A DNA stretch of 64,000 nucleotides, from assembly GCA_026413945.1 (NCBI GenBank), contig JAOAJX010000001.1, forward strand, positions 128,001 to 192,000. Reading direction: 5' to 3'. The position numbers were made by a program, and so were the translations under genes. Positions 706 to 7,234 of the stretch are shown piece after piece. Positions within the stretch are counted from its first letter, which is position 1, and each line of letters begins with the position of its first letter. The notes beneath the pieces were generated by a model. That model did not search any database, had not been told where the DNA came from, and saw nothing but the letters and a program-made list of their open reading frames with translations. The DNA comes from Candidatus Iainarchaeum sp. (lineage in GTDB: Archaea > Iainarchaeota > Iainarchaeia > Iainarchaeales > DTGL01).

Positions 706-1383
706 ATGCCTAAACTTCCTGCCCTTTTTATAAACTTCAAGCTATATGAATCTGGTACTGGAAAAAAAGCATTAGAAACCGCAAAAATAATTGAAAAATC
801 AGTTTATGGCAAAGATATTGGTGTTATACTTGTTGTTCAAGCATGTGATATACGGCTTATAGCACAAAATGTTAGCTTGCCAATTTTTGCACAACATATC
901 GATCCTGTAACATATGGGGCGTATACTGGCCATATATTACCCGAAGCGATAAAAGAAGCTGGTGCAATCGGTACGATCTTAAATCATGCTGAGAACAAAA
1001 GAGATGATAATTTTCTTGGGTTGGCAATAAAGCGTGCTAAAGAGTGTGGGCTTGAAGTAATGGTTTGTGCAGAATCAGTTGAAAGGGCTAAAAAAATTGC
1101 TTCTTTTTTGATAAAACCGGATTTGATTGCAATAGAGCCACCTGAGCTAATATCTGGAGATATATCTGTTTCAACTGCAAAGCCAGAGCTCATAAGTAAG
1201 GTTGTTTCATTGGTTGGCAAGAAAAACGCAATACCAATAATAACAGGTGCTGGAATAAAAAATTCACTCGATGTTAGAAAATCTATCGAGCTCGGCTGTT
1301 CTGGTGTTTTTGTAGCATCTGGTATAATGAAAGCCAAAGATAAAGAAAAGGAAATTGGTGAGCTTTTGTCTGGCTTTGAATGA
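706..1383 (+). CDS. tpiA: Triosephosphate isomerase, archaeal short type
   Basis: INFKLY, FAQHID, LNHAEN, AIEPPELI, GAGI; 225 aa. Confidence 0.95.
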   Translation: MPKLPALFINFKLYESGTGKKALETAKIIEKSVYGKDIGVILVVQACDIRLIAQNVSLPIFAQHIDPVTYGAYTGHILPEAIKEAGAIGTILNHAENKRDDNFLGLAIKRAKECGLEVMVCAESVERAKKIASFLIKPDLIAIEPPELISGDISVSTAKPELISKVVSLVGKKNAIPIITGAGIKNSLDVRKSIELGCSGVFVASGIMKAKDKEKEIGELLSGFE

Positions 1384-1392
1384 GGTGATTTT

Positions 1393-2514
1393 ATGATAAA
1401 AGCCAAAGATCTTATTTTGAGAGATATTGCAAAAATAGATGCTGAAGCGAAAATATCAGAAGCTTTTAGTATGATGCTTAAGCTTGGCGAAGATAGTTTA
1501 GCTGTTTTTTCAGGAGACTCTTTTTTAGGTTTAGTATCCCTTAGGGAATTCCTTAGGAGACATAGGTTTTACTCTGAAGCAAAGGTTAAGTCTTTTGTTG
1601 AAAGCAGAGTGCCGTTTCTATTGGAAGAAGATAGTTTAAGCAGAATTGCTGAGCAAATGTATCATTCTGGCCAAAAAATACTGCCTGTTATGCGGTTAAA
1701 TAAGATTGTTGGGTTTGTACATGTAAGAGATGTGCTATCACATGCGCTTAAAGATAAAAATATCGCTAATATCAAACTCAATAATATTTGCTCTAAGATT
1801 GTTATAGCACAAAAAGAAGATAGCATAGCAAAAGTTTTGTCAATAATGCGTAAGATTGATGTGAAGCAGGTACCAATAGTAGATAACAATAATGAATATT
1901 GTGGTTTAGTAACTTTAGATGGTCTTATAGAGAAATATTTCATACATGCAACTAAAAACGGCCTTTTCTCTCTATACGGCAGAAGACCAGAATCAAAAAG
2001 GATATTGGATATAAAGGTTCGAGAGCTTTTGGAAGAAACTAAAACTTTCCATCCTTTAGACAATTTAATAAATGTAAAGGATGAGCTTATTGCTAACAGT
2101 GTCGTTTTGTTGGTGGATGGTCAAAATATTACTGGGGTTGTTACAGTGAACGATGTCCTTAAGGTATTAATGCATGAAGAAGAGCCAAGTTACAGGATAC
2201 AGATATCAGACATGCCTAAGTTGAGCAAGTTGGATGAAGAAAAGGCAAGGGCAAAAATAAAGAGTATCTATGAGAAAATCAAAAGAATTTTACATGATGA
2301 TGTGATGCTCTCAATACACTTCAAATCGCAGAAAAAAACAGGATTGCGAGCCAAGCATTTTGTGAAAGCCAAAGTAACTTCTGGAAGCTTTAAATTTAAT
2401 GCCTCTTCAGAATCATGGAATTTGTTTACTGCATTAGAGAATGTACTTAGCATATTGAGTAAAGAAGCTTTAAAAAATTCTAAAAGGAGATGTAGAAAAG
2501 GTTACATAAAATAG
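1393..2514 (+). CDS. Four-CBS-domain protein with C-terminal HPF/RaiA-like domain (putative ribosome hibernation factor)
   Basis: CBS repeats (GLVSLREF, LPVM..GFVHVRDV, VPIVD..GLVTLD, GVVTVNDV) followed by a ~95 aa beta-alpha-beta-beta-beta-alpha tail (RIQIS..LSIHFK..HFVKAKV..FNASSESWNLFTALENVL); GAGGTGA SD. Confidence 0.75.
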   Translation: MIKAKDLILRDIAKIDAEAKISEAFSMMLKLGEDSLAVFSGDSFLGLVSLREFLRRHRFYSEAKVKSFVESRVPFLLEEDSLSRIAEQMYHSGQKILPVMRLNKIVGFVHVRDVLSHALKDKNIANIKLNNICSKIVIAQKEDSIAKVLSIMRKIDVKQVPIVDNNNEYCGLVTLDGLIEKYFIHATKNGLFSLYGRRPESKRILDIKVRELLEETKTFHPLDNLINVKDELIANSVVLLVDGQNITGVVTVNDVLKVLMHEEEPSYRIQISDMPKLSKLDEEKARAKIKSIYEKIKRILHDDVMLSIHFKSQKKTGLRAKHFVKAKVTSGSFKFNASSESWNLFTALENVLSILSKEALKNSKRRCRKGYIK

Positions 2515-2522
2515 TTCTTTGA

Positions 2523-2785
2523 GTGGGCATTCCGAAGTTGACAATAGACTAAAAACAAAGTTTGCCCACAGCATACCTCCGCTCTGAGATCCCACAGCAC
2601 TTCACTATGCGGCTACCGTTGCTCCCTTCCGGGCCTAGCGGGTTCACCACAAAGTGAAGCCGGTGGGGGCAAAGCATCAATGTTTTGCTGTGGCTTTGCT
2701 TTTAGCCTAAAGCCTTCTCCGGAACTTCAGCCCGGCATAAAGCGGATTTCCGGTACAGGGAACCGCTAGCTCCCCGGCCTAGCCC
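2523..2785 (-). ncRNA. ffs: Archaeal SRP RNA (7S)
   Basis: Minus strand starts GGGCTAGGCCGGGGAGCTAGCGGTTCCCTGTACCGGAAATCCGC (archaeal Alu domain) and contains helix 8 CCCGCTAGGCCCGGAAGGGAGCAACGGTAG; 3' end approximate. Confidence 0.92.
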
Positions 2786-2889
2786 ACAATAAATTATTGT
2801 TTATTTGGGTTTTTAAGGATAGCGTCAAATAGTGCCACAACCATTAACAAATCACTTGTAACTATAATTACTTTTTATTAATTATTTAG

Positions 2890-4728
2890 ATGAATATATT
2901 TGTGGGTTGCGAAGTAGAATGCGAGCTTTTTTTTAGAAAGTTGGTCGAAGTTCTTGATAATATTAGCCTTAATAATGTAATAAAGGCTTTTGATTTTGCC
3001 AAAAAGTTTTCTGATGAAAAAAAATTTTGCCATCAATTGAGAACAGCAATAATAGCTTTAGAACTAAAACTTGATCAAAGAACTATTGCGGCCTGCTTAA
3101 TTCATGAGTTAAAGGAAAAGCTCCCTTTTGCTAAAGTAGATGGAAAGACAAAAGAAATAGTAATAGAATCTGCAAATATTTGCGATATAAAGGAAAGAAA
3201 TTTTAGACGCCTTAGCAGTGAGAGTTTAGCAAAAATACTTTTGGCTTCATCAAAAGATGTTAGAGGCATAATAGTTGAGATATTATCTCAGCTTGATAAA
3301 ATGAGATGCCTTCAAAAGAGTAAAAACATGGCAACATCGAGGGAAGCAAAAATTACTCTTGAAATACATTCGAAGATAGCTCAAAGACTGGGGCTTGTAG
3401 AAGTTAGCTCGGAATTGCAAGATTTGGCAATGTCAATTGTTTTTCCAAAAGAGTACAAAGTAACAAAAGCAAAAATGTTTAATAAGATCCCAAATCCACA
3501 AGAAATCATGGAAAAAGCAAAACTAGTTATAAAGGAAATTCTGGATCGTCAAGGCATGGCTGCAGCAGTACAAGGCCGAGTTAAAAGCGTCTATAGCACA
3601 TATAAGAAGCATCAAGAAGAAGGAAGAAAAGTTGAAGAAATAAAGGATCTTATAGGCATAAGGATAATATGCGGCTCAATAAGAGATTGTTATAAAGCAC
3701 TAGTAGCGATTATTGAGTCGTTTGAGTTGATTGGAAAGGTTGATGATTATATTATCAATCCAAAAGAAAATAGGTACCGGTCAATACATCTGGTTGTAAA
3801 ATTAGTTGGATATCCTGTTGAAATTCAAATAAGAACTATTGAAATGCATAGAGATGCTGAATATGGCGTTGCTGCACATTGGCGTTATAAGAAAGGTTAT
3901 CAATACAGTGAATTAGATTCTGCTTTATCTTTGGCAAAGCAATTAGTGGAGCTTCAGCAAAACTTAGCAAAAAACCTTTTTGATTATGTGAAATTTTCAA
4001 TTACTGATGATTTCATTTTTGTTTTTACTCCAAAGAAAGATGTTATTATATTGCCAAAAAAGGCCACTATTCTGGATTTCGCATACGCTATTCACACTGA
4101 TTTAGGAAACAAATTCAAATATGGTTTAGTAAATAATATCAAGAGGCCTATTAATTATAGGCTAAATTGTGGAGACACGGTAAAAATTATTCGTGGAAAG
4201 ACAAAAACAGTCAGCCTGAAGTGGCTAAAATTTGTTAAAACTCGAAAAGCAAAATCAGCCATAAGGAAAGAATTTGGGGTCAAAAAAAGTAAATTTAAGA
4301 AAGTAATTGTGACTCCAAAAATTGGTGAAAGAATTATTATTGCGAAGTGTTGCATGCCGTTGCCGGGGGATACCTTTGTTGGATATGAAACAAGAAAAAA
4401 CGAGATTACAATTCACAGGGTTGACTGCGCACTTTTATCACACCTTTCTGATAAAAAGATATTTTTAGTTAATCAGAGCATACTTAAAAAGAAAAGATAT
4501 GCTGTAAGAATTGAAGCATGGGCTTTTAGAAGGGCAGATATACTGAGTGATTTATTTAAGGAGCTAGAAAAAAACAAAGTAAAAGTGCTTAATAGTGAGA
4601 TTAAAATAGACTCCCAAAACACAATAAGAATGTTATTCGACCTCAAAATAAGAGATCGTACACACTTGGAAAGAGTGAGCAGAGCACTTGAGAAAACTCA
4701 AAATGTAATCTACGCAGAAAGGGTTTAG
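2890..4728 (+). CDS. Long RelA/SpoT homolog: (p)ppGpp synthetase with degenerate HD domain, plus TGS, zinc-binding and ACT domains
   Basis: GRVKSVYSTYKK, DLIGIRII, DDYIINPKENRYRSIH, EIQIRT, AEYGVAAHWRYK; TGS FTPK..DFAYAIHT; AKCCMPLPGD..HRVDC; C-terminal ACT. Confidence 0.93.
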   Translation: MNIFVGCEVECELFFRKLVEVLDNISLNNVIKAFDFAKKFSDEKKFCHQLRTAIIALELKLDQRTIAACLIHELKEKLPFAKVDGKTKEIVIESANICDIKERNFRRLSSESLAKILLASSKDVRGIIVEILSQLDKMRCLQKSKNMATSREAKITLEIHSKIAQRLGLVEVSSELQDLAMSIVFPKEYKVTKAKMFNKIPNPQEIMEKAKLVIKEILDRQGMAAAVQGRVKSVYSTYKKHQEEGRKVEEIKDLIGIRIICGSIRDCYKALVAIIESFELIGKVDDYIINPKENRYRSIHLVVKLVGYPVEIQIRTIEMHRDAEYGVAAHWRYKKGYQYSELDSALSLAKQLVELQQNLAKNLFDYVKFSITDDFIFVFTPKKDVIILPKKATILDFAYAIHTDLGNKFKYGLVNNIKRPINYRLNCGDTVKIIRGKTKTVSLKWLKFVKTRKAKSAIRKEFGVKKSKFKKVIVTPKIGERIIIAKCCMPLPGDTFVGYETRKNEITIHRVDCALLSHLSDKKIFLVNQSILKKKRYAVRIEAWAFRRADILSDLFKELEKNKVKVLNSEIKIDSQNTIRMLFDLKIRDRTHLERVSRALEKTQNVIYAERV

Positions 4729-4860
4729 CAATGTTTTGGAGATAGAAATAAATATGGCTGTGCATATTATACTATTGGTAGTTCATAAGAAATAACAAAT
4801 TGCTGGCTTTTAACCAGCAGGTAAAGAGGAAAATCAATAGTAAGTTAAGAAGGTGATTTA

Positions 4861-5595
4861 ATGAAGAAAACAAAAACAGGCATATATGGTCTCGATGAGC
4901 TCATCGATGGTGGTTTCCCTACAGGTAGGACAATATTAGTTAGTGGCTCTTGTGGTTCTGGAAAAACCACCTTTGGAATACAATATATTTACAATGGTGC
5001 TGAGCTCTATAATGAGCCAGGTATATATGTAACACTTGATGAAAGACCATCACTGCTTAGAGAAGATTGTCTAAATTTTGGCTGGGATTTAAAAGAACTA
5101 GAAAACAAGAACATGATAAGAATAATTGATGGCACTGTTGCTAGAATGGGGTTCCCTACAGAGGAAGAGTTTGCTTTACCGAGCACAGGTCTTGACATAG
5201 ATAAGCTTCTTTTAGAAATATTAGCATCAATAAAGAGGTTTGGGGCCAAGAGGATTGTTATAGATTCAGTAGCATCTCTTGGACTTACTTTGAGAACAGA
5301 AGAAGATATAAGAAGAGGGCTTCTGAAGCTAAATTATCTCTTAGGTAAAGCCGGTACAACCTCCTTGCTTATATCAGAAATAGAAGTAGACGATAAAAGA
5401 TTTAGCAAATATGGTGTTGAAGAATACATTGCAGATGGAGTAATACTTATGCATTATATCGGAGTCGGTGGCGGCATAACTAGGGCTCTACAAGTTGTAA
5501 AAATGCGTGGTGTAAAGCATTCTGAGTATATACATCCTTTAGAGATAACAAAAAGAGGGATTGAAGTAAAGAGGATTGAGCAAGCAGACATTTGA
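4861..5595 (+). CDS. Single-domain KaiC-like / RAD55-family ATPase
   Basis: TGIYGLDELIDGGFP, Walker A GSCGSGKT, RIVIDS, VVKMRG; AGGTGA SD. Confidence 0.9.
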   Translation: MKKTKTGIYGLDELIDGGFPTGRTILVSGSCGSGKTTFGIQYIYNGAELYNEPGIYVTLDERPSLLREDCLNFGWDLKELENKNMIRIIDGTVARMGFPTEEEFALPSTGLDIDKLLLEILASIKRFGAKRIVIDSVASLGLTLRTEEDIRRGLLKLNYLLGKAGTTSLLISEIEVDDKRFSKYGVEEYIADGVILMHYIGVGGGITRALQVVKMRGVKHSEYIHPLEITKRGIEVKRIEQADI

Positions 5596-5725: not shown

Positions 5726-7234
5726 TTAAACATCACTTTGTGGTCTCATATGTGGGAATAATATGACTTCTTTTATTGATGTCTTGTTTGCTAAGAACAT
5801 AATTAATCTGTCTATGCCAATTCCTACACCACCCGTTGGTGGTAAGCCGTAACCAAGAGCCTTTATATAATCATAATCCACTAATTTTGTAACGTTATCT
5901 TTTTCGAGGGCAATTTGTGACTCTAGTCTTTCTTTTTGTTCTATTGGATCGTTGAGTTCTGAAAAACCATTTGCAAGTTCATAACCATTGACAAATAGCT
6001 CAAACCTTTCTGTAAAATAATTTTTATCTCTGCTTTTCTTTGCCAGAGGAGATACTTCAATTGGGAATTCTGTTACAAATGTTGGTTGTATCAAAGAATC
6101 TTCTACAAAATTTTCAAAGAGAAGTACAACTAGCTCGCCTTTGGTCTCAATATTTTCTGCTTCTTTTAGTCCTTTTTTTTGGGCCTCAGTCAATAGTTTT
6201 TTGAAACTTAAGGACTCAACATCAATATCCAGAAAATCTTTTATGAGATCGCTCATGCTTTTAATCTTCCATTTTGGCTTAAAGTCAATTTCAGTATCAG
6301 CAAATTTAATCTTATATTTACCGTTTGTCTCTTTTATAACCTCACTTATAAGCTCTTCAGTTAATTCCATCATGCCATTATAGTCTTTATATGTCTCATA
6401 TATCTCAATCATTGTAAATTCGGGGTTATGTAATGTGTCTATGCTTTCGTTTCTAAAATTTTTTGCAATTTCGAAAACCTTTTCAAAACCACCAACTACG
6501 AGGCGCTTTAGATATAATTCTGGTGCTATACGAAGATATAGCTTCTGTTTTAGAAAATTATGATATGTTTCAAATGGTTTTGCTTTTGCACCACCATAAA
6601 TTGGCTGTAATATTGGAGTTTCAACTTCTATGAATCCTTTGGATTCTAATATGTGTCTTATTTTAGATATTGCTTTTGCTCTCTTTAGGAAGACATCTCT
6701 AGTCTCCTGATTACAGATAAGGTCAAGATGTCTTTCGCGATATCTTCTTTCTGTATCTTGAAGGCCATGAAACTTTTCTGGAAGAGTTGCGATAGACTTT
6801 GAGAGAAGAACATAATTGTTCACCCAAACGGTAAGTTCGCCCATCTTTGTTCTAAAAACCCAACCATTTAAGCCGATTATATCACCAGTATCAATTAACT
6901 CCTTGAAGAAATGGAATTTCTCTCTGCCAAGTTCATCTTCTTTTAGGTATAATTGTATCTTGCCAGTAAAATCTCTAATATCCGCGAATATTGCTTTGCC
7001 ATGGTGTCTAATAGCATAAATTCTCCCAGCTAATGAAACAGTTTCTTTTGCTTTCTCGTGTGTTGCTTTTTCATATTTTTTTATAACAGCATCTATTCTT
7101 TGTGGATTCTCAAAACTATATTCATAAGGGTTAACTTTACTTGAGATTATTTTTTTGAGTTTACCTATTTTTATTTCATCGAAGCCAAGCTTCTTAATTT
7201 CTAGGTCATTTAATGTATTCTCCAAAAACATCAC
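5726..7234 (-). CDS. lysS: Lysyl-tRNA synthetase, class II (bacterial/eukaryal type)
   Basis: N-terminal OB fold (LAGRI..GKAIFADI), FIEVETPILQ, YLRIAPELYLKRL, NFRNE..HNPEFT, motif 3 GLPPTGGVGIGIDRL. Confidence 0.96.
   Translation of the reverse strand: MMFLENTLNDLEIKKLGFDEIKIGKLKKIISSKVNPYEYSFENPQRIDAVIKKYEKATHEKAKETVSLAGRIYAIRHHGKAIFADIRDFTGKIQLYLKEDELGREKFHFFKELIDTGDIIGLNGWVFRTKMGELTVWVNNYVLLSKSIATLPEKFHGLQDTERRYRERHLDLICNQETRDVFLKRAKAISKIRHILESKGFIEVETPILQPIYGGAKAKPFETYHNFLKQKLYLRIAPELYLKRLVVGGFEKVFEIAKNFRNESIDTLHNPEFTMIEIYETYKDYNGMMELTEELISEVIKETNGKYKIKFADTEIDFKPKWKIKSMSDLIKDFLDIDVESLSFKKLLTEAQKKGLKEAENIETKGELVVLLFENFVEDSLIQPTFVTEFPIEVSPLAKKSRDKNYFTERFELFVNGYELANGFSELNDPIEQKERLESQIALEKDNVTKLVDYDYIKALGYGLPPTGGVGIGIDRLIMFLANKTSIKEVILFPHMRPQSDV

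Follow-up and report, generated by a model that had tools for sequence, protein, structure and literature searches.

A HibA-family hibernation factor gene and a candidate synthetase-only long RSH gene in a conserved gene block of Iainarchaeota

We analysed a stretch of 64,000 nucleotides from Candidatus Iainarchaeum sp. (assembly GCA_026413945.1, contig JAOAJX010000001.1, positions 128,001 to 192,000), called the window below. Its first 9 kb carries, all on the plus strand, the genes for RadA (cut by the window edge), triosephosphate isomerase (TIM), a CBS-HPF fusion protein, a long RelA/SpoT homologue (RSH) and a KaiC-like ATPase. An earlier note on this DNA had described the last three as co-oriented genes separated only by the gene for the signal recognition particle (SRP) RNA, and had proposed that alarmone or adenylate status could be coupled to ribosome storage through the CBS-HPF protein. 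All three reading frames are indeed present on the plus strand, at 1393–2514, 2890–4728 and 4861–5595. The RSH and KaiC-like genes, however, are separated by 132 non-coding bases and not by the SRP RNA gene, and the description left out the TIM gene, which belongs to the same conserved unit. The genes of the locus are the following.

706–1383, plus strand: TIM gene (Pfam PF00121, 107.5 bits), ending 9 bases before the HibA gene and part of the conserved block.
1393–2514, plus strand: HibA/AHA-family hibernation factor of 373 amino acids (aa), with a CBS tetrad and an HPF domain.
2521–2789, minus strand: archaeal SRP RNA gene (Rfam RF01857, 139.8 bits).
2890–4728, plus strand: compact long RSH of 612 aa, RelA-like [hS], a candidate monofunctional (p)ppGpp synthetase (Pfam and NCBIfam matches).
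4861–5595, plus strand: single-domain KaiC-like ATPase of 244 aa (PF06745, 240.9 bits).

The SRP RNA gene, lying on the minus strand, interrupts co-transcription of the CBS-HPF and RSH genes. Each of these two genes has its own AT-rich upstream region, and the pair is co-directional in the window, not divergent.

The product of 1393–2514 is a full member of the published HibA/AHA family of hibernation factors. Archaeal fusions of a CBS tetrad with an HPF domain were described in 2025-2026 as Hib/HibA (PMC13324472) and AHA (PMC13728122). A phmmer search revealed homology of the 373-aa protein over its full length to PDB chain 9sr9_H (residues 5-364 against 7-373 of the chain, E 5.9e-21), and the data-availability text of PMC13324472 gives 9SR9 as HibA-ATP. 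Pfam CBS matches fall in three stretches of the protein (90.3 bits), and an AlphaFold model of the whole chain, built with an alignment of 12 relatives, has a predicted local distance difference test score (pLDDT) of 82.5, and in it four CBS units are followed by a beta-alpha-beta-beta-beta-alpha domain at the C-terminus. The parts of the protein are as follows.

1393–2178, plus strand: CBS tetrad, residues 1-262, a likely adenylate sensor (four CBS units in the AlphaFold model).
1942–1998, plus strand: low-confidence loop between CBS3 and CBS4, residues 184-202 (pLDDT below 50), aligned to HibA residues ~189-209.
2194–2496, plus strand: HPF/RaiA-like domain, residues 268-368 (tail-only model and Foldseek).

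Searched with Foldseek against a structure library that runs to 2026-04-08 and contains no HibA entries, the whole model has SriA/B (E 1.5e-18), SSO3205-AMP, MJ1225, AMPK-gamma and Dri on top. The tail modelled by itself reaches a pLDDT of 88.2, and ranks 1-31 of its Foldseek matches are exclusively HPF, RaiA, YfiA or pY structures, the best being Vibrio cholerae HPF (4hei_A; E 1.3e-5, TM score 0.80, root-mean-square deviation 2.2 Å). Both the four CBS units and the HPF-like tail of the earlier note, for the second of which it had asked for a check of the fold, are thus corroborated. At the level of profiles, PF02482 is the family matched by most tails, with hits in 8 of 19 family members (best E 2.2e-4), but in the Pfam scan the window's own tail, unlike those eight, has no PF02482 match. 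A profile of the 19 family tails matches HibA residues 282-373 (E 5e-4). The loop at residues 184-202 is similar in length to the loop of HibA that reaches the peptidyl-transferase centre (residues 190-207; PMC13324472) and lies in the same aligned region.

The architecture and length of the window protein are those of HibA of Pyrococcus abyssi (Pab0961; PDB 9SR9-9SRF and 9T7H) and AHA of Haloferax volcanii (HVO_2384), with which it shares the CBS tetrad and the C-terminal HPF/RaiA domain; a loop between CBS3 and CBS4 is likewise predicted, with low model confidence. It differs from Thermococcales HibA in that sequence identity is low, its genome is a DPANN genome and its gene lies beside that of a long RSH; term searches of the HibA (PMC13324472) and AHA (PMC13728122) papers turned up no mention of such a neighbour. 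Ribosome binding, translation inhibition and binding of adenylates in the order AMP > ADP > ATP have been demonstrated for the HibA family (PMC13324472). Stand-alone HPF/RaiA-like proteins have been counted in 8% of archaea, chiefly in DPANN and Nitrososphaerales (Madru et al. 2026). The window tail aligns with HPF-only genes of ~100-120 aa that occupy the same slot in families f11, f14, f17 and f22, whereas the window form is fused to CBS domains. The host genome holds exactly one HPF-domain gene.

The neighbouring 612-aa protein matches HD_4, RelA_SpoT, TGS and ACT_4 of Pfam, all above cut-offs, and contains a zinc-finger motif as well. The earlier identification as an RSH holds. Its best PDB match is mycobacterial Rel (8fr8_I, E 1.5e-83), and its domains are arranged as listed.

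3001–3396, plus strand: degenerate HD (pseudo-hydrolase) domain, residues 38-169 (HD_4 at only 50.6 bits).
3574–3897, plus strand: synthetase domain with motifs intact, residues 229-336 (RelA_SpoT, 118.2 bits).
4015–4191, plus strand: TGS domain, residues 376-434 (PF02824, 67.6 bits).
4342–4428, plus strand: zinc finger CC...H...C, residues 485-513 (motif in 23/23 cluster-type RSHs).
4489–4722, plus strand: ACT/RRM domain, residues 534-611 (PF13291, 46 bits).

When aligned with mycobacterial Rel, the window RSH shows HD replaced by HE and ED by EK and has lost the DRLHN motif, and it keeps the synthetase motifs GRxKS, DLxGxR, DYIxxPK and EIQIRT...AAHWRYK; the roles of these hydrolase and synthetase motifs are presumed here to be those familiar from the RSH literature. 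A motif table of 23 cluster-type orthologues from 13 families gives the same picture, since the canonical HD..ED diad and the DRLHN motif occur in none of the 23, and the catalytic-Glu motif, the TGS domain and the zinc finger each occur in all of them. Family f14 deviates in one point: 4/4 of its sequences have AAHW, a stretch of the synthetase motif, altered or lost. Judged by these motifs, the protein is most likely a compact long RSH of the RelA-like [hS] type, that is, a hydrolase-dead candidate synthetase. Only ~50 residues separate the TGS domain from the zinc finger, so that the alpha-helical domain of bacterial enzymes is missing. Rel residues 550-660 (~110 residues, the alpha-helical domain) have no counterpart in the window RSH, and PF19296, which represents this domain, was found in the bacterial matches and is absent from the archaeal ones. 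The protein also stays below the cut-offs of TIGR00691 (397.9 against 499.2 bits) and of NF008124, GTP diphosphokinase (255.8 against 728 bits).

By its motifs the window RSH resembles E. coli RelA, which likewise combines a dead hydrolase and a live synthetase with a tail of TGS, zinc finger and ACT domains, and its PDB matches to ribosome-bound E. coli RelA (5iqr, 5kps) span the synthetase, TGS and C-terminal parts. The resemblance does not extend to orthology with the proteobacterial enzyme, because none of the sampled bacterial long RSHs falls into the clade of the archaeal type, which also stays short of the NF008124 cut-off. Matches of the [hS] type (E <= 1e-5) were found in 168 of 215 genomes of the phylum, ~15 of them weak and probably to single domains only. 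Bacterial contamination as a source of the gene was considered and rejected: RadA, TFE-alpha, aTrm56 and the archaeal SRP RNA gene lie on the same contig, contamination of the genome (948,649 bases, completeness 92%, with the window numbered as contig 11) is 0.37%, and most of the phylum has the gene.

The host genome holds exactly two RSH genes, and the second is, by motifs, a mirror image of the first. It codes for 499 aa on another contig (G000 contig 16, 28234-29730; locus L002, 703-2202), starts on the stop codon of the arginyl-tRNA synthetase (ArgRS) gene and is followed by a convergent leucyl-tRNA synthetase (LeuRS) gene. Among 10 orthologues of this [Hs] type, the hydrolase motifs are intact in all, and the GRxK, DxxGxR and catalytic Glu motifs of the synthetase are lost in all. 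The type has no zinc finger and, in the window's genus, no ACT domain either. ArgRS lies directly upstream in 8/10 loci; at another locus (L031), argG-argH stands in the place of ArgRS beside the [Hs] gene. The phylum genome search gave an [Hs]-type match at a location of its own in roughly 70 genomes and, among the listed matches, none in families f14, f12 and f15. E. coli SpoT has a comparable combination of a live hydrolase with a degenerate synthetase, but the archaeal paralog differs from it in having no zinc finger and in having lost the synthetase catalytic Glu completely. A tree of 97 sequences places the [hS] type (type A) in one clade (support 81, inner node 98) and the [Hs] type (type B) in another (support 100), and short, weakly supported internal branches (support 81-87) join A, B and the bacterial RSHs. 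Neither archaeal type is an ortholog of E. coli RelA or SpoT, from which the window's type also differs in lacking the alpha-helical domain and in having an archaeal host ribosome.

Genes for NUDIX hydrolases were seen near the RSH-A block in one locus (L009:8548-9584) and directly beside RSH-B in another (L029:2838-3272), and these might possibly serve as alternative alarmone hydrolases.

The third protein was correctly described as a KaiC-like ATPase, with a PF06745 match of 240.9 bits against a cut-off of 26.6. Its gene is preceded, at 5 bases, by GGTGA, a Shine-Dalgarno-like putative ribosome-binding site. The closest solved single-domain protein is PH0186 (2zts, E 2.4e-57), followed by 2dr3 (E 1.7e-44), and single-domain archaeal ATPases of the PH0186/PH0284 type share its length and fold family. 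The protein does not reach the cut-off of any named NCBIfam KaiC subfamily (e.g., TIGR02655, 142.4 against 546 bits). A circadian clock function was considered and rejected, as the protein has one domain, corresponding to just the CI half of KaiC, in place of two tandem RecA-like domains, and there is no KaiA/KaiB context. KaiC-like proteins with 52-98% identity are present in 179/215 genomes of the phylum, including those of families f32 and f34, which are devoid of RSH, and this equal presence in RSH-less lineages argues that the role of the protein is not tied to the alarmone enzymes.

The earlier note had named conserved linkage of the CBS-HPF and RSH genes among relatives as a check on its proposal. 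We searched 215 Iainarchaeota genomes with the RSH, the HPF-domain profile, TIM and the KaiC-like protein and compared the coordinates of the matches; linkage counts take the best listed place per genome and cover the genomes in the match listing. The HPF-domain profile matched 145/215 genomes. Where a genome has both HPF and RSH, the two lie within 3 kb of each other in 75/121 genomes, representing 10 of 22 families; in 9 of the 121 they share a contig at a distance of more than 18 kb, and in 37 they are on different contigs. Among the 75 close pairs, 72 are divergent and 3 co-directional. The linked partner is a full HibA in only 19 of these; in the other 56 it is a stand-alone HPF of ~100-150 aa with no CBS domain. 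As controls, of 87 genomes that have both TIM and RSH, 71 have the two within 3 kb (17/21 families; a conservative count, one split TIM being scored as unlinked), and of 124 genomes, KaiC is directly downstream of RSH (<=300 bases) in 49, farther away but still within 3 kb in another 41, and at 4.3-5.2 kb in a further 20. KaiC shares a block with RSH in 110/111 genomes that have both on one contig. Linkage of HPF to RSH is therefore conserved, but no better than that of TIM or KaiC, and HPF is the least faithful member of the block.

The 23 loci that were fetched share one plan, in which RSH is followed by KaiC in one direction, TIM is followed by HPF or HibA in the other, and the SRP RNA gene comes after these on the opposite strand ([KaiC <- RSH] <=> [TIM -> HPF/HibA] <- SRP RNA). 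In most relatives, TIM separates RSH from HPF/HibA, and in 21 of the 23 loci scanned the HPF/HibA gene has the SRP RNA gene as a neighbour on the opposite strand. A wider recurring block includes TFE, Trm56, seryl- or lysyl-tRNA synthetase (SerRS/LysRS), tRNAs, RadA and RPA. In the window's lineage (G000, G052 and G053), the piece with TIM, HibA and SRP RNA is inverted, and this is why all protein genes of the block run in the same direction there. In family f14, TIM has been lost and HPF lies within 600 bases of RSH in 31 genomes, a direct adjacency that is just what deletion of TIM would leave. The 20 genomes with KaiC at 4.3-5.2 kb (families f12, f13, f16, f24 and f25) have a cassette of ~4.4 kb between RSH and KaiC, whose spacing hardly varies; the cassette in the one locus read consists of FtsX-ABC-FtsX (L020:5597-8584). 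Co-occurrence of the two main genes is not obligate, given that family f32 has HibA and KaiC with no RSH match, and RSH occurs with no HPF match in 23 listed genomes. In five bacterial genomes checked, no PF02482 gene was near rel (0/5) and all had PF02482 genes far from it (5/5), which indicates that HPF and RSH were not imported as a pair.

Two further observations concern the HPF position. In family f4, the place of HPF/HibA is taken by a RibBA gene (DHBP synthase/GTP cyclohydrolase II; L022:7258-8451), and an HPF-only gene is found on another contig. In family f11, the HPF-only gene is immediately followed, on the opposite strand, by small and extremely lysine-rich open reading frames (ORFs) (L013:7482-7772, minus; L014:7760-8245, minus).

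Overall, the locus probably represents, in its Iainarchaeota (Diapherotrites, DPANN) version, an old gene block passed on by vertical descent, with no contact between the CBS domains and RSH. Since TIM and KaiC keep to RSH at least as reliably as HPF does, the cluster speaks for ancestral gene order of the Iainarchaeales and is not specific evidence of coupling. Each gene would then work by the mechanism of its own family. The HPF domain of HibA would plug the mRNA channel together with the A and P sites of the ribosome, the loop of the CBS tetrad would plug the peptidyl-transferase centre, and the protein would sense adenylates, above all AMP, as judged from the P. abyssi and Haloferax relatives, where these properties have been shown. 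The window RSH may act as a hydrolase-dead (p)ppGpp synthetase of the ribosome-binding type, and the alarmone would be removed by the hydrolase-only paralog encoded behind ArgRS on the other contig. The KaiC-like protein would be a phylum-wide housekeeping or signalling ATPase. Any tie between alarmone and hibernation would be indirect: both would answer to the same stress and act on the ribosomal A site, and in most relatives a divergent promoter might be shared as well.

Several points weigh against this reading. The pairing of HPF with RSH survived the inversion in the window's lineage, the loss of TIM in f14 and repeated changes from HibA to an HPF without CBS domains or back, and such persistence makes selection for proximity possible. 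HPF and RSH also usually share a short divergent intergenic region, an arrangement that would allow co-regulation, and co-regulation through a shared divergent promoter is possible. Moreover, the case for inherited order is built on three neighbouring control genes, and the enzyme activities are predicted from motifs as these are understood in the RSH literature.

An alternative is a functional stringent-response and hibernation unit, in which a bidirectional promoter is shared and the alarmone made on starved ribosomes promotes loading of HibA or HPF with no direct protein contact. That 72 of the 75 adjacent pairs are divergent fits such a unit, as does the persistence of the adjacency just described (for TIM loss, also in genome G162), and both the RSH and the HPF-domain protein are of ribosome-binding types. 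According to the introduction of PMC13728122, (p)ppGpp drives the synthesis of HPF/RaiA and RMF in bacteria. We nevertheless regard such a unit as doubtful, since TIM and KaiC are tied to RSH at least as well and the link is gone in 12 of 22 families that retain both genes. In the window itself, the genes are not divergent, the SRP RNA gene lies between them on the other strand and RSH has its own AT-rich upstream region. We also know of no ppGpp target on archaeal RNA polymerase. AHA levels, for their part, are reported in PMC13728122 to be similar in exponential and stationary growth. Direct control of the kind known from DarB is a different matter. DarB, a two-CBS receptor of c-di-AMP that has no HPF domain, controls Rel in B. 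subtilis, and the single-chain CBS tetrad of HibA resembles the DarB dimer, so that the tetrad might bind RSH or (p)ppGpp and couple alarmone and adenylate status to ribosome storage, as the earlier note had proposed. As in B. subtilis, a CBS-domain protein and a long RSH occur here in one organism and, moreover, as products of neighbouring genes; CBS modules bind nucleotides, with AMP reported to be bound in AHA, HibA and ARC. However, the neighbour of RSH in most relatives has no CBS domain at all (56 of the 75 linked genomes), and a circuit from CBS to RSH cannot therefore be the conserved basis of the linkage. Isothermal titration calorimetry (ITC) on the CBS module of P. abyssi HibA gave no signal with GTP or GMP, and (p)ppGpp was not among the ligands of that study (PMC13324472). 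The same source finds HibA in 47% of archaeal genomes, and an RSH survey (PMC3153485) reports archaea to lack long RSHs. Taken together, the CBS-less neighbours and the missing GTP/GMP binding make such control very unlikely.

It is also conceivable that the RSH is a relic of bacterial transfer that makes no alarmone and has been kept for another role, e.g., as a scaffold that binds ribosomes or tRNA. The missing alpha-helical domain would suit this, as would family f14, where AAHW is altered in 4/4 sequences and no hydrolase paralog was found. But the synthetase motifs are otherwise conserved in 23/23 sequences from families that share as little as 30-50% identity (the AAHW part in f14 apart), and both RSH genes are kept in streamlined genomes of ~1 Mb. 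The hydrolase-only paralog, retained in roughly 70 genomes, makes sense only if alarmone is made. A relic is, accordingly, highly improbable in our assessment. At the other extreme, Iainarchaeota might run a ribosome-dependent stringent response that would be the first in Archaea: the compact RelA-like synthetase, with no alpha-helical domain, would read deacylated tRNA on an archaeal ribosome, the SpoT-like hydrolase co-transcribed with ArgRS would reset the system, HPF or HibA would park the ribosomes and the KaiC-like ATPase would gate the synthetase. We hold this full scheme to be unlikely.

As for prior work, the earlier note had called the circuit uncharacterised in archaea. The CBS-HPF factor has since been characterised as HibA and AHA, so this holds for the RSH side only. 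The (p)ppGpp/stringent system is stated to be absent from archaea in PMC13728122, and the RSH survey mentioned above, the classic one by Atkinson in 2011 (PMC3153485), found no long RSH in archaea. A single sentence published in 2021 reports RelA/SpoT in 69% of Diapherotrites with a presumed bacterial origin (PMC8407392), and our literature search found no publication that goes beyond it on RelA/SpoT of Diapherotrites. Four findings are new with respect to print: the compact domain architecture of long RSHs in archaea, the division throughout the phylum into paralogs that are, by their motifs, synthetase-only and hydrolase-only, the operon of ArgRS with the predicted hydrolase, and the placement of the candidate synthetase in one conserved block with the HibA/HPF gene. 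None of the four demonstrates a mechanism. The value of the finding is limited by the fact that the presence of the genes has been in print since 2021 (PMC8407392) and by the neighbourhood being weak evidence of coupling. Still, the window and about 150 related genomes offer a conserved, apparently synthetase-only long RSH, accompanied in roughly 70 by an apparently hydrolase-only paralog. This provides two concrete proteins for asking whether any archaeon makes and uses alarmone, and a natural setting where an RSH and HPF-type hibernation would meet on one archaeal ribosome.

Beyond the KaiC-like gene, the window contains tRNAs, a class II aminoacyl-tRNA synthetase and the genes of aTrm56 and TFE-alpha. 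The ORF of this putative class II synthetase is at 5726-7234 (minus strand). In the same slot, families f1, f4 and f21 have class II synthetases of the Asp/Lys/Asn type of ~500 aa, and families f11, f15 and f17 have a class I lysyl-tRNA synthetase (PF01921; loci read for this slot: L011, L013, L014, L016 and L017). The class of LysRS may thus have been displaced within one syntenic slot. In two relatives, RadA is interrupted by inteins that bear LAGLIDADG domains (L005:9328-13251 and L011:10070-12001).

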